From Iphione sp. A-MEVVRFRX5 (Eukaryota), in assembly GCA_976226885.1 (NCBI GenBank), contig OZ320320.1, positions 66,030,001-66,094,000 of the forward strand: 64,000 nt of DNA, written 5' to 3'. A program made the translations under genes and the position numbers. Of this stretch, positions 19,701 through 50,100 are shown in pieces. The notes under the pieces are model-generated. The model made no database searches and was not told the origin of the DNA. It was given only the letters and a program-made list of their open reading frames with translations. How positions within the stretch are numbered: position 1 is the first letter of the stretch; every line of letters begins with the position of its first letter.

Positions 19701-21053
19701 TCATCGGCGAGCAGCTGCGGCCACCATGTTACACAGTGTGTCGAGCTTCTCGTCCATGCCCTTGAGTCGCTGCTCCATGTCTCCGACGCGCGCCTTTAGC
19801 TCCTGCTGGCGCAGGTCGAGCTTGAGGCAGGCCTCGTGCATGTTGTTCTGCATCTTACTCATCTCAACCAGGGTGATGGAGCTGTCCATCAGACGGCGCT
19901 GCTCCTGCTTCACCTCGCGGATGGAGTGGATGGCCTTGAGCAGCTTGCGCTGGTGCTTGCGCACCACGCTCGTCTTATGGAGCTTCTTGTTCTTGTAGAT
20001 GAACCAGCCGGCCTTCAGGATGTTAGCCGCAGCGTGCTTGTAGCGTTTGTCCAGTTCCACGTCGATGACGAAGTTGTGCACGTACTTCTCGGCGCGCGAC
20101 AGCTCGAGCTTGCGCGCCAGCACGGCGACAACGAGCGCCGTGCATCCGGCACCGAACACGCCGGTGAGGACGGCGATGCCGCGACCGCAGTACGAGTTGG
20201 GCACGATGTCGCCGTAACCTACGGAGAGGAAGGTGATGGCGATGAGCCACATGGAGTTGAGGAAGTTGGCGTGCACCTCGTCGTGGTACATCTCGCAGGC
20301 GCGTAGCAGCCAGCTGGAGATGACCAGAGCGGACGTCATGAGAACGGTCAGCACGTACTCGGGATAGAGCGTCATCATCGACTTGAAGATGAACTTGAAG
20401 TTGAAGTGGATACGGTTGAGCGCACCCAGACTCTGCGAGGAGGCATCCGTGAAGAGCTTGCTGTGAAGCATGAGCACGCGGCACAGGAGGTAGAAGCGCA
20501 GGAACATTGGCATGGAGAAGATAACGTCGACGGGCACGATGACATGCGTGATCTCGTGCCGGTTGGCGTCGAGATTGGCCATGTCGAAGTCGTAGTCGCC
20601 CGGGATGGGATGGATGGCGTACGTGGTCAGCTCGATCATGATCTTCAGCACTCGCTTGCGCGACATGGCGAGCCGCCAGTCCTCCACCGAGTTGTCGCAC
20701 ATGAAGAGCTTGACGTCGAGCGCGTGGTACCACACGACGAAGCCGAGCAGCGTGACGGTGGAGATGGTGATGCAGGACTTGACGAGCAGCGAGGCCGTGT
20801 CGGATTTGGTGTAGACGCCGCCCATGAAGAGCTCCGTCTCGGCCACCATCAGCACGATGCCCACCATGGCGAAGAAGAGCGCAAAGTCGCACACCACGCG
20901 CCGGCGCCGGAAGAGCTCCTTGCGCTTGGCAAGGCGGTATCCCACGTTGTCGTACTTCCTCTCCGGCTTCTCCGAGCTGTCCTGTGTGTACCGGGCGAAG
21001 CCGCCATTGCGACCCACCAGTGGGATGCCAGGGTCCTCCACCACGGTCGTCAT
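19701..21053 (-). CDS. KCNN: Small-conductance calcium-activated potassium channel (SK/KCa2-like), 450 aa, single coding exon
   Basis: Six hydrophobic TM segments, S4 region FLRFYLLCRVLMLHSKLFTDASSQSLGALN, pore WLIAITFLSVGYGDIVP, S6 GAGCTALVVAVLARKLEL, calmodulin-binding domain AEKYVHNF...AAANILKAGW...KHQRKLLKAIH, and a C-terminal coiled coil. The ORF is uninterrupted from ATG to TGA. Confidence 0.97.
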   Translation of the reverse strand: MTTVVEDPGIPLVGRNGGFARYTQDSSEKPERKYDNVGYRLAKRKELFRRRRVVCDFALFFAMVGIVLMVAETELFMGGVYTKSDTASLLVKSCITISTVTLLGFVVWYHALDVKLFMCDNSVEDWRLAMSRKRVLKIMIELTTYAIHPIPGDYDFDMANLDANRHEITHVIVPVDVIFSMPMFLRFYLLCRVLMLHSKLFTDASSQSLGALNRIHFNFKFIFKSMMTLYPEYVLTVLMTSALVISSWLLRACEMYHDEVHANFLNSMWLIAITFLSVGYGDIVPNSYCGRGIAVLTGVFGAGCTALVVAVLARKLELSRAEKYVHNFVIDVELDKRYKHAAANILKAGWFIYKNKKLHKTSVVRKHQRKLLKAIHSIREVKQEQRRLMDSSITLVEMSKMQNNMHEACLKLDLRQQELKARVGDMEQRLKGMDEKLDTLCNMVAAAARR

Positions 21054-21420
21054 GTCGGCCTGCAGGGAGTCGTCGGGCCCACGCCGGGTCGGGTCGGAGG
21101 GCCGCCGGAGGACGGGGGTCGTGTGGCCGCGTTCACGGCGGTCAGTCGGCAGGGGTCAGCACCGGAGCCGGATGTCAGTGAACGACGCGCACCCGACTAG
21201 ACCCCAGGCGGGAGGGCGGGCGGGCGGACGGGCTCGCGGCGGAAGCGAGAGTGCGGCGAGCACACTGCGCGCGCACTACTCACCAGCGACGTCTGGCGGA
21301 GGTCGAGCGGATCAGCACCGACGTGAGAAAACTCTGTAACAGAAGCAAACTGACGGTTAATGACTCCTCGGCGGATGTTCGACACCTGCTGCTAGGCAAT
21401 TTGACAGAAGGGTTAATAAC
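21054..21420 (-). promoter_or_regulatory. CpG-rich 5' region of the SK gene (5'UTR/promoter)
   Basis: GC/CpG-dense segment directly upstream of the ATG, with GGGCGG boxes near 21210-21230. CCCTGCAG|GCCGACATG may be a 5'UTR splice acceptor. Confidence 0.5.
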
Positions 21421-26881: not shown

Positions 26882-27534
26882 GGCCAAGGTAATTATCTGT
26901 GTTTCTGGTAACATGTTGAAAAAATGTCGAATCGGTAGGTCGATGGTTTCTTCTTTTTTGGCATTCAGCACAAATACCCAGTGAAAATGCTAGACAGTAC
27001 TTTATAGTCCTAGAACTATCACTTCTACTGCCCAGATTTTAATATAATATCATATGAAAACCGATGTTCTAAAGAGGGACACTAGGTATTGCATCAGTCT
27101 CTATCTTTTTTCATTCTGAAAATATTCAGGCCTAAAAAAAGTTCTGTGTTTCCGGTAACATTGCAAAAAATTATGGGGTCGGTCGGTAGGTGAATTTTTT
27201 CAAATTTTTTCTCAATGTTAATGACCTCTCAGAGAAACAAATATATGTGGGAAGATATGTTCTACTGCTTAGATCTTGATAAAATATATATCAAATGAAA
27301 GGTAATAATGAGAGCAACAAAATGGTGTATAGTATGTGTCCCTATCAGTTCTCATTCCAAAGATATTCACAAAACAATAAAAAATAAAATTTTCCATTGT
27401 TACTAAAATGAGGGTCGGTCGGGTTACCGGAAACACAGATATTTTTTGTTTAGGCCTCACAAAAAAAATGCTCCACTAGTACACAAATCAATGTCGGTCA
27501 GGTAACGGGAAACAAAGATATATTTTACTAGGCC
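26882..27534 (+). mobile_element. PIF/Harbinger-like MITE (copy 2, outer) interrupted by a same-family copy
   Basis: c-TTA|GGCCAAGGTAATTATCTGTGTTTCTGGTAAC ... GGTAACGGGAAACAAAGATATATTTTACTAGGCC|TTA-g. This gives a 3-bp TTA TSD in a CTTAG target, typical of PIF/Harbinger. Confidence 0.7.
27129..27456 (+). mobile_element. PIF/Harbinger-like MITE (copy 3, nested; 328 bp)
   Basis: TCA|GGCCTAAAAAAAAGTTCTGTGTTTCCGGTAAC ... GTTACCGGAAACACAGATATTTTTTGTTTAGGCC|TCA, with a perfect 3-bp TCA TSD. Confidence 0.8.
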
Positions 27535-33010: not shown

Positions 33011-33298
33011 TGTTGGCGGAGGGTTGTTACTTGTTGTGTTGGCGGAGGGATGTTACGTGATGTCGGAGGGATGTTCAGGAAAGGGGCGGAGGGACGGGAA
33101 GTTTAGTCTGGATTTGGCGGAGGGGCGGAGGCGCGGAGGTACCGCGGAGGGATTTGTTTGTGTATATAAGTGCGAGCGGCGGAGGTCGGAGTTGAGTTGT
33201 TGTTGGATTGTCGTTGCATGTGCTCTTCAGAAATAAATTACAAGTTCATCTTTACTCGCGGAGTGGAACTTCTTTATTCATAATGGCGGAAGCTAACA
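33011..33298 (+). repeat. 5' LTR (288 bp)
   Basis: TGTTGGCGG...GCTAACA. It is identical to 41828-42115 except at 33085/41902 (G/A) and 33180/41997 (C/G). TATATAA at 33163-33169 and AATAAA at 33232-33237. Confidence 0.97.
33016..33264 (+). promoter_or_regulatory. Array of GCGGAG(G/T) motifs in the LTR promoter
   Basis: GCGGAGG starts at 33016, 33042, 33086, 33117, 33125, 33133, 33144 and 33179, and GCGGAGT at 33258. Near-matches TCGGAG(G/T) at 33063 and 33186. The motifs are seen directly; their function is inferred. Confidence 0.7.
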
Positions 33299-33299
33299 T

Positions 33300-33317
33300 T
33301 GGTGGCAGCGGTGGGAT
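33300..33317 (+). other. Primer-binding site complementary to the 3' end of tRNA-Leu
   Basis: TGGTGGCAGCGGTGGGAT, 1 nt after the 5' LTR, is the reverse complement of ATCCCACCGCTGCCACCA, the 3' end of metazoan tRNA-Leu(AAG/UAG). Confidence 0.88.
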
Positions 33318-33390
33318 ACGGCGCCGAGGAAGGGACCAGGAAACTCAGGACCCTTCATCTGCTAAGCACTCGGCGTCGGCCCGACGGCCC

Positions 33391-34539
33391 ATGGAAGGAG
33401 ACGAACCCGAGAGAAGAGTAACTCGTAGTGGAGGAGGAGGGCGCTGAGCAGACGACGTGGAGGGACAACAAGGAGGAAGGCCCGAGCGGCCGGCTCGGAC
33501 CCCATCCCGCTTGTGGGGCGGCGGGGAGGGGACGGAGGCAGACGGCCCTCAGGGCCCGACTGCGGAGGCAGCGGAGGCAATTCCCCCGCGGGAGCCCCAG
33601 GATGCGGTGGCACCCGCGGGAAGGTCCACAGCGGTGGACGGAACTTTCTCTGAGTCCAACTCAGATCCCGAACTGGATATTACCAGCGGTGAGGAGTCGG
33701 CGGAGGAGGAGGAGGAAGTCGCCGTGGTGGAGGTAGGTGGGGCTCAGCGAGGCAGGGTCAAGCCAGAGTCTTTTGATGGGACCCAGGATTGGGAGGACTA
33801 CCTCCACCACTTCAACTTAGTGGCGATGGCAAATAAGTGGGGAAACCGCGAGAAAGCAGTGCAGCTGGGAGTTTGCCTCCGGGGTCCGGCGCGGGCAGCC
33901 ATGAGAGCAGCTAGAATAGATGTCAACGCACGGGCGGCATTCCGCACCCTAGTCAAGACATTGGCCGCAAGATTCCAGTCCCCTGAGCAGGTTGACCTCT
34001 ACAAGCAGAGACTCAAGTCTTACAGGCAGAAGGTCGGGGAGGACCTCCTCCAATTAGCCGATGAAGTAGAGCGCTTAGTTCGGAGGGCTTACCCCGGGAT
34101 CAAGGGCCATTGGGCGGAGGAGCTATGCCGAGAGAGTTTCGTGCAGGCGGTGAGGGACGAGCGCATCAGGCAGTGGATCGTTCAGAAGAGGGTGGAAGGA
34201 TTCCGGGCCGCAGTTTCCGAGGCAGCCTTTGCAGAAGCTTACTATAAAAACCGGGAAGAGAGGGAAGGTAGGAAGAGCACAGGCAGCAGTGTCTGAGCGG
34301 GGTGCAATGTGATGGTGACAGAGGAGGTGAACAAGGTGGCACCAGGGCCTACCCCCACAGCAACGGAGGAGCTACTCCTGAAGTTGGCCGAACGCATCGA
34401 AAGTCTGGAAGGGAAGTGGAAGACTTCGGGAAGTCAAAAGAAGACGGGATGTTTCCGTTGCGGGAAGGAGGGGCACTTTAGACGGGAGTGTCCAGAGAAA
34501 CCTAAGCCGGCGGAAAACGACAAGCCGTCCTCCCAGTAG
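33391..34539 (+). pseudogene. gag: gag (capsid-like region plus CCHC zinc knuckle) with two in-frame TGA stops
   Basis: ATG at 33391 is in the same frame as track ORFs 33457-34296 and 34309-34539, with TGA at 33445 and 34294. It contains PESFDGTQDWEDYLHHF...ANKW...LRGPA and CFRCGKEGHFRRECP. Confidence 0.9.
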
Positions 34540-37500
34540 GGGGAGAGGGAGACACGGCGGAGGAGCTCATCCCCAGGGTTGCGGTGGCAGAGACGAGAAG
34601 CGGAGGAGAAGATTATAATACGGGAGACGAGATAAGCGGGGAGATGGACCGAAGATCAGGGACTCTCACGCTGACTGGAACGGTGAGGGGGCGGCCACTG
34701 ACGTGGTTGGTGGACACGGGGGCCTCCGCGACTATTATTGCCCCTCAGGTCGCGGAGGAGGTCGGGCTGCAAGTTCGACCGAGGCCAGGACAGAGGATCG
34801 TGGGCGCCGACGGCCGCCCCCTCCAATGCAATGGTGAGACCGAGCTGGAGGTCCAATTTCAGACGACGAAGTGGTTGATCAAGGCGTTGGTCGCGGAGGT
34901 GGAGTACGCCGCCATCCTGGGGATGGACGTCCTCCGCCAGCGAGGAGCGGTGGTGGACACGGCAAGGGGGGTCCTTCGCCTCCCCGCCGGGGATCCCCCT
35001 TCTGCCGTCGTACGGGTAGCCAGGGACGTGCAGGTAGCTGCCAGCGGGAGGAGTGTCATCCCAGTAATAGTGGAGGGAGCGGAGGCAGACCACTGGATGT
35101 TGGAACCTGAGAGGCGGTTCGAAGTGGAAAACGGCTTGCGGGTACCCCGATCGTTGCTGCCGGGAAGGGTCGAGGAGACGGCCGTCCTGTGCATGAACAC
35201 GTCAGCGGAGGGACGTTGGTTACGGAGAGGAGCTACCGTGGGACGGGCGGAGGCTGCGGAGTCACCAGAGGCGACGAAAGGAACAAGGTTGGAGGACCCC
35301 GAGGCAGGAGGGGAAGTCGTCCAAGAATTAATGAAGACGGTGTCAGATGAATTTGCGGAGGATGAGAGGGAGGCCCTTCGCGAGGTGCTGTGGGACCATA
35401 GGAGGGTGTTCCAAACTAAGGATGGAGGAATGGGACGGACGGACTTGATCCAACACGAGATTCACACGGGGGACGCGGAACCCATTCGGCAGCGATTCCG
35501 GCGGCTCCCTCCTCATAAGCGCAGGATTGTCGAAGAGGAAGTGCAGAAGATGGTAGCGCAAGGGGTGCTAGAACCCTCGCGGAGCCCGTGGGCCTCCCCC
35601 ATTGTTCTGGTCAAGAAAAAGTCAGGGGAATGGCGGTTCTGTATTGACTTCAGACGGCTGAACGAGAAGACACGGAAGGACGCATACCCGATTCCCCGGG
35701 TCGACGACACCCTGGATGCTTTGGCGGGGGGAAAATACTTCTCCGTTATAGATTTGGCCTCAGGATATTGGCAGGTGGAGGTCAAGGAAGAAGACCGAGA
35801 GAAGACCGCGGTGTGCACCCCGGGGGGCCTTTACCAATTTAAAGTCATGCCCTTCGGGTTATGCAATGCACCCTCGACTTTCGAGAGACTGATGGAGGTT
35901 GTGCTTTGTGGACTGATAGGTGAGGGGTGCCTCGTGTACCTCGATGATGTGATCATCATCGGCTCGACCGTATGACAGATGTGCAGCCGACTTGGGGAGG
36001 TGCTTGGTAGACTGGAGGAGGCGGGAATGCGAGTGAAACCGAAGTGCCAGCTGCTGCGGAGGGAGGTGACCTATATCGGACACGTAGTCTCCGCGGAGGG
36101 AGTTCGACCAGACCCCGAGAAGGTGCAGGTAGTCGCGGAGTGGCCGGAGCCTGCCTCGGTGAAGGAAGTGCGAAGTTTCCTGGGACTCGCGTCCTACTAC
36201 AGGTCCTTCATTCGTGACTTCGCGCGGAGGGCGGAGGCACTGCACCGGCTGCTGGAAAAAGGGAAGAAGTTCGAGTGGGGGGAAGATCAACAGGCCTCGT
36301 TTGCTGATCTGCGGCAATGCCTCGTTACGGCCCCCATCCTGGGCTTCCCGACGTCAGAGGGTCAGCTTATCCTGGACACCGATGCCTCCGCGGATGGCCT
36401 GGGAGCGGTACTGTCCCAGCGACAAGCAGAAGGGGAGCGAGTGTTGGCCTATGCGAGTCGTACCCTCACCCGACCCGAAAAGCGCTATTGTGTCACCAGG
36501 AAGGAGCTTCTGGCGGTGATCTTCGCCTTAAGGAAGTTTAAGACGTACGTGTCAGGAAGGAAGGTGGTTATCCGCACGGACCACGGCAGCCTCCGCTGGC
36601 TGATGCACTTCCGCGAGCCCGAGGGGCAGATGGCCCGCTGGTTAGAAGAAATCTACTGCCGTGATGTCGACATCATCCATCGAGCAGGACGGGTGCACAA
36701 CAACGCAGATGCTTTGTCGCGGCGACCGTGTCGACAATGTGGCCGTCCAGAGGGAGTGTCGGAGGAGGAGGACGATTGCGCGGAGGGGGTCTTCGCACTG
36801 CAAGTTCTACCGGTAGTGCAGCCCTCAGAGATAGCAGCAATAGTCGACAAGGACGAGCATCTGAGGGAAGTGTTGCGCCGCCTGGAGGAGAAGAACGGAC
36901 CGCCGGAATGGGGGCCTGAAACCACGTGGGAGGAGAGGAGGCTTCTCATGGAGTGGAGTAGGCTGTCAGCCGATCGGGGGCAGATAACAAGACGTTGGGC
37001 GGCGGAGGACGGGCGGACTTGGCCCCAGACGTTCGTCCCTGAAGAGCTGCGGAAGACCTGTTGGGAGGAGGTGCATTCAGGGGCCTTTGGAGGACATCTC
37101 GGGCCAGTCAAGACAGCCGGTTTGCTACGCACGAAGTTTTTCTGGCCGGGACTGAGTCGAGACGTGCAACTGTGGGGAGGAAGCTGCCCGGTGTGTCTAG
37201 AAAGAAGAAGCCCTCCGCGGCGGAGGCGCACACGACTACAGCAACGACAGCCTGGGGGACCGTGGGAATTAATAGCTGTGGACGTCTTAGGCCCTTTCCC
37301 CGAAACAGAACGCCAGGCCAAGTACGTGTTGGTGGCATGCGACCATTTTACTAAGTGGGCGGAGGCGTTCCCCTTGCGCACACTGGCTGCGGAGGAAACT
37401 GCCTCAGTGCTGGTACGGGAGCTTATCTGCCGCTTTGGCCCTCCGCGGGTCATTCACAGTGATCAGGGAAGAAACTTTGAGGCGCGACTGGTGGCGGAGG

Positions 37501-38276
37501 TATTACGGCTGTGCGGAGTAGAGAAAACACGGACCACCCCCTATCACCCTCAGGCCGATGGACAGGTGGAGAGGTTCAACCGGACCTTGCAGCACATGTT
37601 GGCTACCACGGTGCAGGAGCACCAGGGGGATTGGGACCTGCGACTCCCGTACGTGACGGCAGCATACCGAGCTACGCCCCATCGGACCACCGGCTACTCG
37701 CCGAACTTCCTCGCCCTCCATCGGGAAACCACGCTACCACTACAGCTGGCTTACGGAGGACCGGAGTCAGCGGAGGAGGGAACACCCTCCGAGTTTGCTG
37801 GGGAGCTTCGAGATCGGGTCCGCGCAGCGCATCGGCTGGCCTTCCAGCGGATGAAGGAGGGGATCGCGCGGCAGAAAGACTGGTACAACCAAAAAGTGCG
37901 GCCGATCGCGTACAGTGTGGGGGAGGAGGTGTACGTGTTCCACCCCATCAAGAAACAAGGGCTGTCGCCGAAGTTACAGCGATTCTGGGGTGGCCCATGG
38001 ATTGTCCAGGAAGCCTTGTCAGAAGCAGTGTATCGGGTGAAGAAAGGGCGGAGGGAGCGAGTCGTCCACGCTGACCTACTGAAGCCAGGGCGGAGGGCCT
38101 CCGCGGAGAGGGCTGCGGGGAATCCCCCAGCTGAGGCGACCGTTACAGTAGCGAGCGCACGGCGGGAAGTCATAGCCAATCGCTGTGAGGCGGAGGGAAG
38201 CCAGCGGTACCTCCGCGGGCGCACCGCTATAAAACCGCGTGAGGAGCCATCGGTCGAGTCACTACGAATCCCATGA
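34506..38276 (+). pseudogene. pol: pol: aspartic protease, RT, RNase H and integrase; one in-frame TGA in RT
   Basis: The -1 frame relative to gag is open from 34506. Motifs: LVDTGAS (PR), SPWASP...CIDFRRLN...PFGLCNAP...YLDD (RT), DASADGLGAVL...TDH...NADALSR (RNase H), HSGAFGGH...CPVC, DVLGP, HSDQG, QVERFN (IN) and RFWGGPW (GPY/F). TGA at 35973. KPKC lacks one residue of the usual KPxKC. Confidence 0.95.
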
Positions 38277-38285
38277 CCAAGAAGG

Positions 38286-41200
38286 ATGCCACGACGGAGG
38301 TCCAGCGATGACAAGCTCAAGTGCCACAAGTGCTCTTATGTGTGCGACAGAAAGGATAACCTGAAGCGCCATATGAAACTTCATGCTCAGTATGGGTACG
38401 CGTGGGGTTGCCCGTCGCAGCGATGCCCCGAGAAGGTGTTCCAACGGAAAGACGATCTACGGCGGCACTTAGAGACTAAACAACATGACGCGGAGGGAGG
38501 CGTTAAGCTGATGAGGAAGTCACGGGAACGGTATTACCAGTTCTTCAAGGTGGAGGGGTCCTCCGTGCTGAGAGGAAGGCCCGCCGACCCGTCCGTGGTG
38601 GAGGGAAGCCCACGGCCCGCCCCCAAGAAGAAGCAGGCTCAGCAGGAGAAGGCGGAGGCACCCTCCACGGAAAGCGAGGCCGAAGAGGGAGAGGAGTCGG
38701 CGGAGGTTGCGACCACTTCGGAGGACGCGGAGGACGATCAAGACGACTGGGAGCCCCAGCCCTCCACCTCGTCTGCAAGAAGCCCTCCATGACCCCCGCC
38801 CAAGAAGAAAGTAAGTAAAACCAAGAAGGGTGCGCAGCAGCAGCCCCCGGCCCCGACCGGCCACGGCGACCCAACTCCGACCGATGAGACAGAGAAGTCC
38901 CCACGTTCGCTGTGCCGCGAGTTGAGAGACACGATTACGGGGTTGGAAACCAGGCATCCCGCCACGCCGGCCAGTTCCCCGGCCACGGTGGCCAGGCTGG
39001 TGGAGACAGCCGACAAGTTGGAACGGGCGATGCTCGGGTCCCCAGCATCTGGGGTTGTTCTGCGGAGCAGCCCCCTCGCTAAACGACGACTAGCGGAGGA
39101 CCCGAAGAAGTCGGAGGGGGCCAAGCGAGGTCGCGGTAAGGGCCCCACCCTTTCTCCGCTGGTAGGTCGATTAGGTGGGCAGCTCCCAAAAGTGCCGTCG
39201 CCGCTTCTGATGGAGGAGAGGACCCCACCAGCCCTACCAGCGGAGGCGGCCTCCCCTAGGCTCGTTACCCCGGAGGTCGCCAAGACGAAGACGGGGCGCA
39301 TTTCTGCACTGTCGACACCCAGTATGCCGCCGACCCCGGAGAACCTTTCTGAACTAGTCAAGCGCATGCAGGAAGAAGGGGGCCCCCGAGCCCCCCCCGC
39401 ACGGGTGGACGAAGTGGCGGCGATGTTTAAAGCCATGTTCGGTGACTCCATCGTCGTATCAGTCCCGGCCGGTGACGGGGCAGGGAGCACGGAGAAGGTG
39501 GGGAGTTCCTCGGAAGAAGAGCTTGCGGCCAAGCTTCCGGCCTCCGGGGATGACGAGGAGGCCGCCCCTGGAGACCAAGAACTTGCTGGACCCCCCGAGC
39601 TGCAGTACGTTGAGGTGGGTGGAATATTGGAAGTGCACGAAGCCGTCACGCCGGAGGCCCCTCCTCGAGTCTCGACTGAGCCCCCCCGGGGGGCTGACGA
39701 CGTGCCCGGGGCGGGCCCGGACCCCAAGAAGATGGCTGCGGAGGTGCTCCAGTGGGAGGCACAACAGGCGATAGCGACGGTCCGGGCCATGGAGCTCCGA
39801 CAGGAAGAACAAGAAGAGGCAGCGGAGGGCAGGCCATTAGCCCGGCCTGAGCTCCCGGGGGCGCCCTCGACTGTGGCGCGGAGGGCTACCACTCCTCCGG
39901 GGATCCCTTCGGGCACGGGGGAAAGCTCAGAACCAATCCAGGGAGGGCCTCCGCTGACAGGCCCATCACGGCAGGGGGGGCCCCCGCCGCCGGGCACCCC
40001 GAGAGCAAAGCAGCCGATGCCCGCAGAGGGACCGCAGGAGGAACCGGTCGAAGAGGGAGCACCACTGGACCAGCAGCCGATCCTCTCCCCGGCCTTACCA
40101 CAGGGAGGGGAAGAGCATGAGGAACCAGCCAGGCCGGCGCCCGCGGTCCTTGAGGAAGGCAGGAAGGTGACGGAGGCCAATACCCTTGGGCAGGAGCTCC
40201 CTCCGCGACCGGAGGGAGACGAACACGGGGGGGGTACCCGGCCGGTCCCTCCCCACGACGGGCGGCGCGGGAGCGGTCTCATAGGCGACACTCACGGGGC
40301 GGGGCCTCCGCCACGAAAGAGGGGCGAGCAAGAAGACGGAGGCGAACCAGACCCTCTCCTTGGCGACCAGCGGGGAGGCGGCTTGCAAGGCGACGTCCAG
40401 GAGGCGGAGACCCCTCCGCGTCAAAAGGGCGATGAACATGGGGAAGGGGCCAGGCCGGCCCCCCCTCAGGTCGAGCCACACGAGACCAGCGCGGGGGACA
40501 GTACCCAGGAACCCGACCCCTCTACACAACCGCGGGCGAGCGAGCCTGAGGGGGAGAGTGAACCGACCCGGCCTTCCGTCGAGAAGCGCGGAGGCGGCGC
40601 AGAGCTCCTTCCACGACGGAAGGGAGACGAACACGGGGAGGAGACCAGGCCGGTCCCTCCCCACGTCGAGCGGCGCGGGACGGGCGCGGAGGGCGATATC
40701 CAAGAGGCCGAGCCCTCTCTGCGACCGAGGACGGGAGAACCGGAGGAGGGGACCAGGCCGGTCCCTCCCCGCGGTGGGCCGCACGAAGGGGTTTCACCGG
40801 GCACGACCCCGGAGAAAGACCCCCCTCCATGACGGAGGGGAGATGAATACGGGGAGGAGACCAGGCCGGTCCCTCCCCACATCGAGCGGCGTGGGACTGA
40901 CGCGGAGGGCGACACCCGGGGAGCCAGGCCTTCTCCACGACGGAGGAAGGGCGGGCGAGGGGAGGAGACCAGGCCGGTCCTTCCCCGTGGCGAGCCGTTC
41001 GAAGGGACCTCGTCGGGCACAACCCCGGAGACAGAGCCCCCTCCACGACCGGGGGGGGACGAATACGGGGAGGGGACCAGGCCGGTCCCTCCCCACATCG
41101 AGCGGCGTGGGATTGGTGCGGAGGGCGACAACCGCAGGGCCAGGCCCTCTCCACGACGGAGGAAGGGCGGACAGGAGGAGGAGACCAGGCCGGTCCCTCC

Positions 41201-41816
41201 CCGCGGCGGGCCGCACGAAGGGGCCTCGTCGAGCGCAACCCCGGAGAAAGAGCCCCCTCCACGACGGGGGGGGGACGAATACGGGGAGGGAACCAGGCCG
41301 GTCCCTCCCCACAACGAGCGGCGGCTACCGGCAGCGGACTCCGCCCTTCAACTGGCGGAGGGCGGAGGGGCCACGGAGCAGACTACCACACCGCCTTCCT
41401 CGGGTTCACACGGCCCGGAGAGGCGGCAATGGCGAAGGACGATATCACGGGAGGCGGCACGACGGCCGAGCGACGATCGGCAGGAGGCGGAGATATGGGC
41501 CCGATGGGCAGCAGCGCGACAGATCACGTGTGATGCCGACCCTCCGCGGGGGTGGTCGATAAGGACAAGCAAGGGCCGTAGCCGGTTGGCCCGCAGTGCT
41601 GACGGACTAGTTATAGGAGTACGTCATGAACTCTCTCTCGCCCGGGAGGCGGAGGCAGCTGACGCCCAAGCACTGTCCCGGTGGTTTGGTCGATCCACGG
41701 AGATCCCCGAAGAACTGAGCTTAGAAGAGTTTATATTTGAACTTAGCGTAGATAAGGATTGTGCCGTTGTCGAAGCAGACGAAGTGTTTAGTGTTACTCG
41801 GGACGAGTTTGTCTAA
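38286..41816 (+). pseudogene. ORF3: ~1176-aa non-env protein with 2 C2H2 zinc fingers, NLS-like motifs, acidic/Pro-rich region, tandem repeats and a C-terminal domain; two in-frame TGA stops
   Basis: Track ORFs 38286-38792, 38922-40832 and 41586-41816 share one frame. I translated the gaps and the only stops are TGA 38790 and TGA 40830. Fingers: CHKCSYVCDRKDNLKRHMKLH (38322-38384) and CPSQRCPEKVFQRKDDLRRHLETKQH (38409-38486). PKKK occurs twice. The final TAA overlaps the PPT. No signal peptide or TM segment is visible. Confidence 0.85.
40600..41320 (+). repeat. Coding higher-order tandem repeat: 108-bp (36-aa) units paired into 216-bp (72-aa) units
   Basis: AGGCCGGTCC (RPV) recurs at 40647, 40755, 40863, 40971, 41079, 41187 and 41295, exactly 108 bp apart, and alternate units are more similar. 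Looser copies lie near 40239 and 40452. Confidence 0.9.
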
Positions 41817-41827
41817 GAGGGGGGCAG
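41815..41827 (+). other. Polypurine tract
   Basis: AAGAGGGGGGCAG immediately 5' of the 3' LTR. Confidence 0.88.
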
Positions 41828-42111
41828 TGTTGGCGGAGGGTTGTTACTTGTTGTGTTGGCGGAGGGATGTTACGTGATGTCGGAGGGATGTTCAGGAAAG
41901 GAGCGGAGGGACGGGAAGTTTAGTCTGGATTTGGCGGAGGGGCGGAGGCGCGGAGGTACCGCGGAGGGATTTGTTTGTGTATATAAGTGCGAGCGGGGGA
42001 GGTCGGAGTTGAGTTGTTGTTGGATTGTCGTTGCATGTGCTCTTCAGAAATAAATTACAAGTTCATCTTTACTCGCGGAGTGGAACTTCTTTATTCATAA
42101 TGGCGGAAGCT

Positions 42112-42115
<4 letters not shown>
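41828..42115 (+). repeat. 3' LTR (288 bp)
   Basis: 286/288 identical to the 5' LTR and followed by the TSD ATAT. Confidence 0.97.
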
Positions 42116-44622: not shown

Positions 44623-44957
44623 GGCATAAAGAAAAGTTCTGTGTTTCCGGTAACATGCTGAAAAAAGAGGGTGAGTCAGTAGGTGACATTTATTTCATTT
44701 TTCTTTTTTCAATGTTAATTACTTCTTAAGCTAATAAATATATATGGTAAGATAAGTTCTTCTTCTCAGATCTTGATGAAATGCATATCAAATGAAAGAT
44801 AATAGTATAAGCAACAAGATGATGTATGGTATGTGTCCCTATCATGATTCATTCTGAATTTATCCAAAAAATGAGAAAATAGAAAAGGTCACAGTTGGCT
44901 CTAATAATTATAGGGTCGGTCCAGTTATCGGAAACACAAAACTTTATTTATTAGGCC
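44623..44957 (+). mobile_element. PIF/Harbinger-like MITE (copy 4; 335 bp)
   Basis: c-TAA|GGCATAAAGAAAAGTTCTGTGTTTCCGGTAAC ... GTTATCGGAAACACAAAACTTTATTTATTAGGCC|TAA-g, with a TAA TSD. The interior aligns with 27129-27456. Confidence 0.8.
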
Positions 44958-47068: not shown

Positions 47069-47164
47069 TGTGAAGAGCGACTCACCCAGCCCGCGCCATG
47101 TGTGAAGAGCGACTCACCCAGCCCCCGCCATGTGTGAAGAGCGACTCACCCAGCCCACGCCATG
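47069..47164. repeat. 32-bp minisatellite x3, preceded by (GTC)n
   Basis: TGTGAAGAGCGACTCACCCAGCCC(G/C/A)CGCCATG occurs three times, varying at one position. Confidence 0.9.
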
Positions 47165-50100
47165 TCTACAGCGCGCAGTACGCTGTAATCAGAGCCCACT
47201 CTCTGTACGGCACAGACACGGCAGGACGATCAATGCAGGAGCATGTGGTTCACACACATCACCAGGCGTGGCGAGAGCGAGAGAGAAAAAAAATCATTTT
47301 ACGAAGGGCGAGCGGCAAATGCTGGCAGCGGATGACTGCGCTTTTAGCTAAGCGCTACATCTGATTTAGGGGGACTTTAGTAGACTTTGCCAGCAGAATA
47401 GGCATGTAACGAGAGGATATGCTAAGGTGGATAATCGTTGTTGCAAATTCGGTCAGTTAAGAATAAAGAACGTGTTAGTTTTCTCATATTAATGGCCCAT
47501 GGGCGCAGGTAAACAGAGGCCTGTAAGCACGCTCTGTCGAATAATATTCATTAGATAAAGACAGGTGTCGACAGATACACAATTTAGTGTTGACGTATAA
47601 CCACAAAGAAGACAATTAGAAGTAAATAAAATTAATATGCACCAGAACGGAGTGCTGCCCGCGTTGTTGCTGTTGTTTCTGTACATGTGACAGAAAAGAA
47701 ACATGATTAATTTGAGTTCTCCGAGAACAGGAACTGCGTGCTAAATTTAGTGAGTTCAAGTGTTAGTCAATAACATCAACGACATTGTTATTGTCTCCTG
47801 TTCTGGAACATCTGCTGTGGATATGGATTCGGAGGTAACTACGAAACCGGGAAAAGGCAAGAGGCTAACAGACACAGGCGGACCTAATTTCAGCTGGCAA
47901 AGGAACTATTTTCGTTGAGGAACAATGATTGATTGCAAGTGTACCTTGTGAATAGAATATTGCCATCTGTTATCTCAAGACCCGAGCTAGACAGCGTGTC
48001 TCGACTCTCATCTAAAATGCCAGCTATCCTTCGGTCGGTTCCGTTTCTGTCGTTAAAGTATAGGCGGGTTCCGCGCCATTATTAGCATGTTAGACAAGAC
48101 GCCTGCCCGTGTCACATATGGCTGCTCCCAGAAGGAGCTGCGAACTCGCGCCTTCCTTACCGGGGGATATTAGTTGGGTAATGGTCCCTGCCAGGCAGTG
48201 TTGATGGGGCGTTAAGACATATGATGAGGGTGTGGTCTTCTGCTGATCGCTGCCCCCCCACCCCACATCGCTCTGTTGTGAGAGCAGCTCATATTGTGGG
48301 TGAGCGACTCCAGGCGGCGCCAGGGTAATGAATGGCGAATGGGTTTGCGTGTTAGGGCCGGCGACGGCGGTTCCCGGGGGCGGGCGTCGTGCCAGGTGCT
48401 TGTGAGGGTGCGACTTCTAGGAGGAGGGGGAGGGGACGTGGCCCACCTGCCATCTCAGGTGTGATCTGTCCACCGCCTGATTATTAGGTACAGACGTCGG
48501 TTACCGCCCCAGTGATGATGACACCAGACCTTCTTCAAGTAAGAGAGAGAAACAGGCTGCGGGGAATTCTAGAACCCGTAGGGAGAGATTTTCCCCCTCG
48601 TGGCTGCTCGGGGAGTACGTGACTTTTTTTTCAGTGATTGGCTTCCCTTGTGGACATATTGGGCACGTTTCGTTCCTCATGGTCTACTGCTTGGGGACCT
48701 GCCAGGCAGCGTGCTAGAAGGTCTGTGCTTGTGATCAAAGTCGTTCTGTGATAGACATATATATACCAGTATATATATACAAACAAGCTTAGATTCACAG
48801 CTAAATTCTTCAATGGCTTCCTCAAAGACCATGCCTAGACAGGCTTGCAAATCGCTTGACTCGTTCATTTTTGGTATCTAAATATTTATGGTTTCTTTAC
48901 ATTTTAGTCGATACAAGCATTTTATTGGACATTCATTATTATGTAACAACAATTTATATCAAAATGACACTCGCACTGTTTCGTAGGTGCTGACTAGTGA
49001 CGATTGACTGTCTACTCGAATTGTCTTTGGTGGCCTTTCTTCCTAAGCCCCTACAACCTTCCATATTTCATTCACACCATCACCACCAGCATCTTTAAGA
49101 GAACAATAGCAATGTTTTACTATCTTCCTCATCGCTTCTTTCATAGACTCCTGATTCTTCTGTTATTTTAAGCAGCTGTCTCCATTATCGCCACCTACCG
49201 CCGCATTTTCTCAGTAGCTCATCAGGGAGCGCTGCGGTCGAGGCCGATTTCTATGCCACTCCATCAACGGGGGTCTTCATCGAGGAAAGCATCGCGGGAT
49301 TGGTGAACGCTTTCCCGGGATTCCGCCTGAATACCTTTCGGGGACGCCGTGAATGAAAGTCCTAATGACCTCACTGAAACCTTCTCCAGCAACCCTTTCC
49401 GGGCGCCTCAAATAGCTGACCATGTAGATTCAATCTGAGATTGCCGTTTCCTTTCAAGGTGCACTCTTTTTGTCTATTTCGGACCCCCCGCTATTTTGAT
49501 AGCCGGATTACGGGTGCCTCACCTAGCTTTCCGCTGCACAAGGAGTACACTCTTTCATTATGATCGACGTTTCTCGGCTCAGTATCGGCTCCCGGCGGTG
49601 ATACATCCGGCTAAATTGTGTGGAAATTTCCTCATGGGATCCTTTTCTTCGATCTAACATTACATTTCTAAGCTCTGTTCTAGCAACACTGTCGAGATTA
49701 TGCTGACTGATGAACACGTATATTTCAGAACAAAACTCTTGAAAGGTACATTGTATTAGCAACGGCTGACTACTAACTACGTGTACTGTACATTGCCGCA
49801 CTGAGTAGGACGTTTTACTCGTTGGCAAGTGCATGATTGCCACATACATGTACATGTACAATATTCACTGACATGTATCGTATTAGCTGTAGATCTAGAT
49901 CTCTCAGGGCTATGTGTACAGTTTTGAACTCCAGCAGTTTTAATAATGCATCAGCAATCCAAATGGGAGACAGGATGAATCATACCATTGTCAAAATGTA
50001 CCTTGGGTAAAACATATCTCCGGGGACAAAAGACCCTATAGAGTTGGTGAACAGTATAGAATACTTTTAGAAATGTGAATTGGGTCACATTAAGTATTCA

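Follow-up and report, generated by a model that had tools for sequence, protein, structure and literature searches.

A zinc-finger ORF3 and its predicted target motif in a Ty3/gypsy retrotransposon of Iphione sp.: a candidate regulator of its own element

In this study we describe a third open reading frame (ORF), ORF3, in a full-length Ty3/gypsy retrotransposon with long terminal repeats (LTRs). The element was found in a stretch of 64,000 nucleotides (nt) from Iphione sp. A-MEVVRFRX5 (GenBank assembly GCA_976226885.1, contig OZ320320.1, positions 66,030,001 to 66,094,000). This whole stretch is called the window here, and positions are counted from its first letter. The element occupies 33011-42115 on the plus strand and has an LTR pair, a primer-binding site, a polypurine tract, gag, pol and ORF3. 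A preliminary description of the window had called ORF3 transcription-factor-like, and this is supported by our analysis: the motif predicted from the helices of its two C2H2 zinc fingers is the one motif that is specifically enriched in the LTR and in the body of the element. Judging from sequence, ORF3 probably regulates its own element in a sequence-specific manner, most likely as an activator or an anti-silencer.

Results

Reading frame and architecture of ORF3

ORF3 (38286-41816, plus strand) spans 1176 codons in the same frame as pol. Translation agrees with the preliminary description that this is one frame, broken only by TGA 38790 and TGA 40830 and ending at a TAA (41814) that overlaps the polypurine tract. 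The other two plus-strand frames across the same interval contain 24 and 35 stops. When ORF3 was shuffled 1000 times with its dinucleotides preserved, the mean was 23.9 stops per frame, the best frame never had fewer than 10, and a frame with two stops was never reached (0/1000). The non-repetitive 5' part passes this test by itself (1 stop, 0/1000), while the C-terminal 483 nt taken alone give a weaker result (11/1000).

Both of the C2H2 fingers described previously were recovered. Finger 1 (amino acids (aa) 13-33, 38322..38384) has the classical pattern C-x2-C-x12-H-x3-H with a base-reading helix (positions -1 to 6, RKDNLKR), and it matches Pfam zf-C2H2 (E 4e-4) and zf-H2C2_5 (E 7e-6), in both cases below the curated cut-offs. 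In an AlphaFold single-sequence model this finger is folded, with a predicted local distance difference test score (pLDDT) of about 64-73 over aa 11-30. Finger 2 (aa 42-67, 38409..38486; helix RKDDLRR) shows the atypical spacing C-x4-C-x13-H-x5-H, with the ligands and the F-x5-L-x2-H pattern present, and aligns with the fingers of Egr1/Zif268 at E about 0.02.

Downstream of the fingers the basic motifs, the acidic stretch and the Pro/Glu/Gly-rich region are present as described before. A basic motif (aa 113-117) is followed by the acidic stretch (aa 129-155), the first break (aa 169) and a second basic motif (aa 170-178), all within 38622..38819. From their type the two basic motifs are putative nuclear localisation signals. 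The composition of 38820..40170 is that of a Pro/Glu/Gly/Ser-rich region of low hydrophobicity. Repeats of 36 aa had also been reported; they are real, but their unit is not a simple one. In the tandem block at 40175..41323, 108-nt units alternate into a unit with a period of 216 nt (85% matches, 0% indels), which corresponds to 36-aa units in a 72-aa higher-order unit in the protein. The more diverged copies start at 40175, and the block holds the second break. The C-terminal region (41415..41813) ends in an acidic, hydrophobic tail, a candidate activation domain by composition only. From these motifs and from composition we infer that ORF3 may be localised in the nucleus and may have an activating function.

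It had also been claimed that ORF3 has neither a signal peptide nor a transmembrane (TM) anchor and is not an envelope protein. Both statements are supported. In a hydropathy scan the best 19-residue value was 1.42, with no TM segment, and the best 9-residue value within the first 30 aa was -0.01, with no signal peptide. Pfam gave no env family on ORF3, and by Pfam and hydropathy scan we found no features of env or of class I-III fusion proteins. There is one N-glycosylation sequon.

Predicted DNA target and GCGGAG sites along the element

At helix positions -1, 2, 3 and 6 the two fingers (R, D, N, R and R, D, D, R) agree with published modules for GAG and GCG, respectively. The module table of PMC5260015 gives RSDNLVR for GAG and RSDDLVR for GCG; in PMC1920264, RSDNLTR is listed for GAG and the 3' triplet is read by finger 1. 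Because the helices correspond to GCG and GAG modules and finger 1 would be placed on the 3' triplet, the predicted target is 5'-GCG GAG-3', with GAG for finger 1 and GCG for finger 2. An Asp at helix position 2 leads one to expect G or T as the next base. We consider it likely that the finger pair binds the predicted GCGGAG motif.

In the 288 nt of the 5' LTR this hexamer occurs nine times (33016, 33042, 33086, 33117, 33125, 33133, 33144, 33179 and 33258) and is the top hexamer, tied with its one-base shift CGGAGG. Its mean count in 10,000 shuffles of the LTR was 0.27, with a maximum of 3. The TATA box is at 33163, with seven of the nine sites on its upstream side, and the motif is followed by G at eight sites and by T at one.

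For the coding regions the null was obtained by shuffling synonymous codons, with protein and codon usage kept and the tandem block (40173-41330) left out. On both strands together there are 58 GCGGAG sites where 17.1 are expected, and the motif ranks first of 1772 strand-pooled hexamer classes with a z of 11.0 (null maximum 6.1 in 200 shuffles). The 36 sites in pol (27 on the plus and nine on the minus strand) compare with 9.8 expected, and the top two hexamers of pol are GCGGAG (27 against 8.6) and its reverse complement (9 against 1.1). Both strand forms thus come out on top in pol, which speaks for double-stranded DNA and against codon preference or RNA. Ala-Glu codons cannot account for sites that lie out of frame or on the minus strand; of these there are 24 against 6.3 expected, with a maximum of 15 in 1000 shuffles. 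Where Ala-Glu does occur it is written GCG GAG in 19 of 23 cases in pol and in 15 of 19 cases in ORF3. Within ORF3 the 5' non-repeat part (38286-40172) has 12 sites against 3.9 expected, and the 3' end has six against 1.4.

None of the 18 one-mismatch variants of GCGGAG is enriched (highest z 1.7), reversed-order and gapped forms of the motif show no enrichment, and among the 16 GNGGNG hexamers a single one is enriched, namely the predicted one. The next base is G at 48 of the 58 coding sites (66% in shuffles). The three bases preceding the motif are uninformative, with GGG or TGG at 2 of 58 internal sites. Because of this, and because GC-box forms are unenriched, the motif appears to span two fingers (6-7 base pairs (bp)) and not the three of Sp/KLF proteins.

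The whole element carries 83 GCGGAG sites in 9.1 kb, with a largest gap of 498 nt; the flanks, that is, the rest of the same window, which served as background, carry 10 in 54,895 nt. In three control ORFs the motif was counted 0, 0 and 1 time, and none of their top hexamers exceeded the null. At the protein level there is an excess of Ala-Glu, which we did not count as evidence, neither for the whole of pol (23 against 11) nor for its core from reverse transcriptase (RT) to integrase (IN), where 10 against 6.3 (z 1.45) lies above all 117 relatives (maximum 7).

At the 3' end of pol, 38000..38234 (plus strand) is a candidate internal promoter, with six sites within 228 nt (four on the plus and two on the minus strand) and then TATAAAA at 38228, which is 58 nt upstream of the ORF3 ATG. 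Within about 150 nt upstream of this ATG there is no pyrimidine-rich splice acceptor; the closest possible ones lie at 38134 and 37951. An ATG overlapping the pol stop (ATGA) opens a 12-codon frame (38273-38311, plus strand) that runs across the start of ORF3 and could affect its translation.

Structure and decay of the element

We assign the element to Ty3/gypsy (Metaviridae) because its Pfam matches follow the order protease, RT, RNase H, integrase. In addition, it has a gag with a CCHC knuckle, two LTRs with TG...CA ends, a primer-binding site, a polypurine tract and a probable target duplication. The 5' LTR (33011..33298) has an AATAAA at 33232. The primer-binding site (33300..33317) begins with TGG, one base past the LTR, and presumably resembles the 3' end of tRNA-Leu. 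The gag gene (33391..34539), whose start we set at the first in-frame ATG 3' of the primer-binding site, has a PNMA/Retrotrans_gag-like capsid region besides the knuckle, and pol (34506..38276) ends in TGA 38274. The polypurine tract is at 41815..41827, with a purine run (41815-41824) directly before the 3' LTR (41828..42115), which is also 288 nt long and has eight GCGGAG sites. ATAT borders both LTRs and is likely a 4-bp target duplication, but it lies within an AT microsatellite. The two LTRs differ at two positions and the insertion is therefore young. One of the differences (33181/41998) abolishes one GCGGAG in the 3' LTR, which explains nine sites in one LTR and eight in the other. Relatives of the pol protein have 43-66% identity with it, and the best-matching ones 53-55%.

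This copy contains five premature stops, two in gag (33445 and 34294), one in pol (35973) and the two in ORF3. These five and the stop at the junction of pol and ORF3 (38274) are all TGA, and there is no frameshift. In four of the six a C directly follows the stop. From the divergence of the LTRs 1.2 stops would be expected, and up to 4.3 at the upper bound, a figure computed when four stops had been counted. Five stops of the same kind suggest a biased mutational process after insertion, and, given these stops, the copy is probably inactive. We also weighed whether TGA might be a sense codon but did not adopt this reading, as the age of the element allows several lesions by the same estimate.

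Searches for homologs and folds

No homolog of ORF3 was found in large protein sets, which cover eukaryotic repeat proteins unevenly. When the N-terminal region was compared with shorter proteins, none of 32 candidates reached E <= 1e-6. For the C-terminal region (41415-41813) a PDB sequence search gave three matches (E 0.37-0.61), which we rejected; a word-indexed search yielded none from 1208 candidates, and ESM Atlas gave no usable match. Two matches in a full HMMER scan of this region were rejected as well, being sums of short matches in repeat proteins of unrelated type. The preliminary description had proposed a check of the protein with Foldseek and AlphaFold. In Foldseek the finger model had no match at E <= 0.001, and the AlphaFold model of the C-terminal region had a pLDDT of 40. 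The look-alikes that ESM gave for the finger region (0.91-0.94) are finger proteins of small size and mostly from fungi; they have few shared features and are a lead only. Rfam gave two matches, both sub-threshold.

In a bacterial genome scan we found two contigs with a distant gypsy-like pol (32-34% identity) and no ORF3 relative among their listed ORFs. Contig L002, from a bacterial metagenome-assembled genome (MAG) and probably eukaryotic contamination, carries an AT-rich gypsy-like element at 148-9457 in which no LTR pair was seen. Its order is gag, pol, a 503-aa Cys-rich ORF without Pfam match and an ORF of 727 aa with domains of RING-like and Tudor type; a Tudor-bearing retroelement could bear on counter-defence against PIWI-interacting RNAs (piRNAs). 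Contig L001, from a Sedimenticola MAG and likewise probably eukaryotic contamination, has a gypsy pol at 814-5179 with a long insertion between RNase H and integrase.

Link to pol and fused finger tails in related elements

ORF3 begins four codons past the pol stop TGA 38274 and continues the frame of pol, so that the two are separated by one TGA, a feature absent from the preliminary description. Hence ORF3 may not be a wholly separate gene from pol. The earlier view of ORF3 as an accessory protein is supported, but its separateness is in doubt, both through the shared frame and through related elements that have finger tails fused to pol.

Such fused tails were found in eight of 120 pol relatives (P0066, P0101, P0106, P0109, P0110, P0111, P0117 and P0122). 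These relatives are protein sequences only, in which a separate downstream ORF3 would not show. After the integrase follow a Met, a finger pair, an acidic patch and a Pro-basic patch, and a below-cut-off C2H2 match in Pfam was obtained for all four tails that were scanned. Two more of the 120 relatives have long tails without fingers. In a quick pol tree (120 rows, midpoint root, no named reference elements) the eight proteins form one clade (SH-aLRT 96) that excludes the present element. Besides the shared order, the fused tails resemble ORF3 in an acidic patch ending in a W/D-x-x-P-like motif and in a disordered region after the Pro-basic patch. They differ in belonging to a separate clade, in their length (111-306 aa), in a first finger of C2HC type and in their helices, and their homology to ORF3 is not significant. 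In this part of the gypsy tree finger modules are found behind pol repeatedly, be it through descent or convergence.

Six of the eight fused-tail proteins also have gag in the same ORF. At their C-terminal end three of the tails have a second finger pair, and four share a different region. The Met of the tails is preceded by residues such as F/C/L/S and then R, which, as far as can be told from protein, could hide a splice acceptor.

Other features of the window

An SK calcium-activated potassium channel with three Pfam domains is encoded in an uninterrupted 484-codon frame at 19701-21155 (minus strand). Like the named relatives of pol, this gene points to an animal host. A 379-codon open frame at 9498-10637 (plus strand) has Lys/Pro-rich 5-residue repeats and no Pfam match. 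A dispersed repeat family (6773-7088, 27045-27457 and 44632-44886; 72-83% identity, both orientations) is probably a small non-autonomous element, and at 47069-47175 there are three to four near-perfect 32-nt tandem units.

Discussion

If ORF3 regulates its own element, its protein would be made from a subgenomic or internal-promoter transcript and would enter the nucleus via its basic motifs. There it would bind the site cluster upstream of the LTR TATA box as well as the sites along the whole provirus. The disordered and acidic regions might then recruit host activators or keep silencing marks off, and the outcome would be a family-specific positive feedback loop.

Several points weigh against this proposal. 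The whole case is built on one broken copy, and the sequence is neutral between an activator and a repressor. The LTR had been seen before the recognition code was applied, and the match was thus not blind, although the code itself was fixed independently. Finger 2 has no match of its own in the Pfam scan and an H-x5-H spacing, and the AlphaFold single-sequence model shows only its helix, at low confidence; the missing Foldseek match of the finger model adds to this. The linker between the fingers has 8 residues, one above the limit of 7 residues that PMC7293014 applied to finger arrays. No ORF3 homolog was found in the large protein sets with which co-variation of fingers and motif could be followed. 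Enrichment in gag is not clear (4 sites against 1.9, with 40 of 500 shuffles as high), and of the three control ORFs two are weak controls, being taken from AT-richer DNA. The candidate internal promoter is weak, too, as another TATAAAA is found at 34243 in gag and an equally dense site cluster near 36000. Finally, the ratio of non-synonymous to synonymous changes (dN/dS) between the repeat units shows no purifying selection specific to the frame, with 0.64 for that of ORF3 against 0.59 for another one. The preliminary description had held that ORF3 is retained by selection; the open frame (0/1000 shuffles) and the DNA sites speak for this, but the repeat block does not.

The alternative that survives best is that ORF3 is, or is in addition, a C-terminal extension of Pol. 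TGA 38274 would then be a lesion or leaky, and the fingers, tethered to integrase, would recognise the element's own double-stranded complementary DNA (cDNA) or guide integration. We think this unlikely, but Pol fusion is a live rival: a single TGA in a shared frame separates pol from ORF3, all five premature stops are likewise TGA, eight of 120 relatives have a finger pair with acidic and basic patches in frame after the integrase, and the sites lie on both strands over the whole element length. However, an in-frame arrangement has a chance of 1 in 3 anyway. All eight fused tails start with a Met 7-9 residues past the motif with which pol usually ends, a hint at separate initiation in these proteins as well, and they stand in a clade of their own, apart from the present element. 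In two of the three relatives closest to this element, pol stops soon after the integrase C-terminal domain. A profile of the fused tails scores ORF3 at only 4.9 bits, with 1 of 500 shuffles higher, and the insertion site is AT-rich, with flanks that show no GCGGAG excess.

Slightly less probable again is the possibility that ORF3 binds GCGGAGG in order to repress or limit its own family, as a form of copy-number control, or to scaffold silencing. It has been argued that self-restraint is common among transposons (PMC6719617), all of the motif evidence is neutral on sign, and there are sites in the gene body as well as in the promoter. On the other hand, ORF3 has acidic stretches and an acidic-hydrophobic tail, and Pfam gave no repressor domain. 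The seven LTR sites in front of the TATA box also speak against repression, activator sites being usually upstream of the TATA box.

To a similarly low degree it is conceivable that the motif serves a host factor, for example of Sp/KLF type, with a coincidental helix match, or that ORF3 is of little importance, being a finger pair captured from the host. In favour of this, the sequence GGGGCGGAG, which resembles a GC box, is present at two of the nine LTR sites, and helices of the form R-x-D-x-x-x-R are common in natural fingers. In contrast, the triplet upstream of the motif carries no information (again 2 of 58), and neither GGGCGG (z 1.0) nor KGGGCGGR (z 0.4) nor GCGGGG is enriched; we discarded a GC box of Sp1 type as the motif. 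The 6-7 bp of the motif match the span of two fingers, and the enrichment of the predicted hexamer alone among the 16 GNGGNG forms is likewise at odds with coincidence. That ORF3 might be a degenerate env, a fusogen or neutral filler is very improbable and already largely refuted by the stop count (2 against about 24 expected) and the absence of signal peptide, TM segment, glycoprotein features and Pfam env family, as well as by intact fingers with a matching motif, even though ORF3 occupies the env position and its repeat block shows no frame-specific constraint.

As a self-regulator, ORF3 would work in a similar way to Tas and VANC, being a member of neither family. Like the foamy virus Tas/Bel1 gene it is an accessory gene situated downstream of the structural genes and ahead of the 3' LTR (PMC4929722). 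Tas has an N-terminal DNA-binding and a C-terminal activation domain and binds its own LTR and an internal promoter (PMC4929722), an arrangement to which we liken ORF3 from sequence alone. Unlike ORF3, Tas belongs to an enveloped retrovirus and has about 250 aa in the bovine virus, and in the text of PMC4929722 the word 'zinc' does not occur, whereas ORF3 has a C2H2 pair. The present element, by comparison, is a gypsy element without env whose sites also run through the coding regions; no Pfam family of Tas type was found on ORF3, and the pol of the element is of gypsy type. The sequences of ORF3 and Tas showed no relation, nor would one be expected.

VANC of the Arabidopsis VANDAL elements is likewise an element-encoded accessory protein with a short motif that is abundant in its own element and rare elsewhere, and with variable protein regions containing tandem repeats (PMC5735166, PMC6719617). 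The motif described here is also abundant inside the element (83 in 9.1 kb) and rare outside (10 in 54.9 kb of this window). VANC, however, comes from a plant DNA transposon with motifs in non-coding tandem repeats (PMC5735166, PMC6719617), whereas the present element is an animal LTR retrotransposon in which most sites lie inside pol and ORF3 through codon choice. The Pfam matches of ORF3 are to C2H2 only, and the VANC domain of Mutator-like DNA transposons is not among them. Demethylation has been shown for VANC (PMC5735166, PMC6719617), while anti-silencing by ORF3 is only predicted.

ORF3s other than env are known, such as the GDSL and DEDDy ORF3s of bdelloids (PMC5408684) and those with the domains of planarian Burro (PMC6431247), and CERV of C. 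elegans Cer1 is a nuclear regulator of its own element (PMC10309623). These are enzymes, membrane proteins or an RNA-export factor, and the relevant passages of the three papers describe no C2H2 DNA-binding ORF3 with a matching motif in its own LTR. A C2H2 ORF3 is also not described in the corresponding passages of PMC12440569, PMC6238403, PMC3597677 and PMC13269885. A preprint of 2026 (10.64898/2026.08.24.746577) deals with self-activation driven by a transposase, and retrotransposons are unmentioned in the portion concerned. Among Creative Commons papers in PubMed Central and bioRxiv we found no prior description of such an arrangement; Repbase reports and most subscription journals lie outside these collections.

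According to a review of 2019 three transposon-encoded anti-silencing mechanisms were known, all of them from plants, and their scarcity was called surprising (PMC6719617). ORF3 would be an animal candidate, with a target that is predictable from the published code and under apparent selection in the element's own DNA. Thereby the co-evolution of protein and motif can be tested computationally across families and with a single binding assay. A comparison of the finger helices of retrotransposons with the motif excess at their synonymous sites might serve as a route to detect such regulators. It is quite possible, if somewhat short of probable, that there is a class of animal gypsy elements which encode their own C2H2 transcription or anti-silencing factor, and in which the LTR and the synonymous codons of pol have been rewritten into sites for that factor. 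The clade with finger tails fused to pol and with differing helices may hold further members of this self-regulating class. If this were true, each family would have its private pair of fingers and motif that can be read from the recognition code. Such elements would mirror the zinc-finger repressors of the host and would be the counterpart of VANC among animal retroelements.

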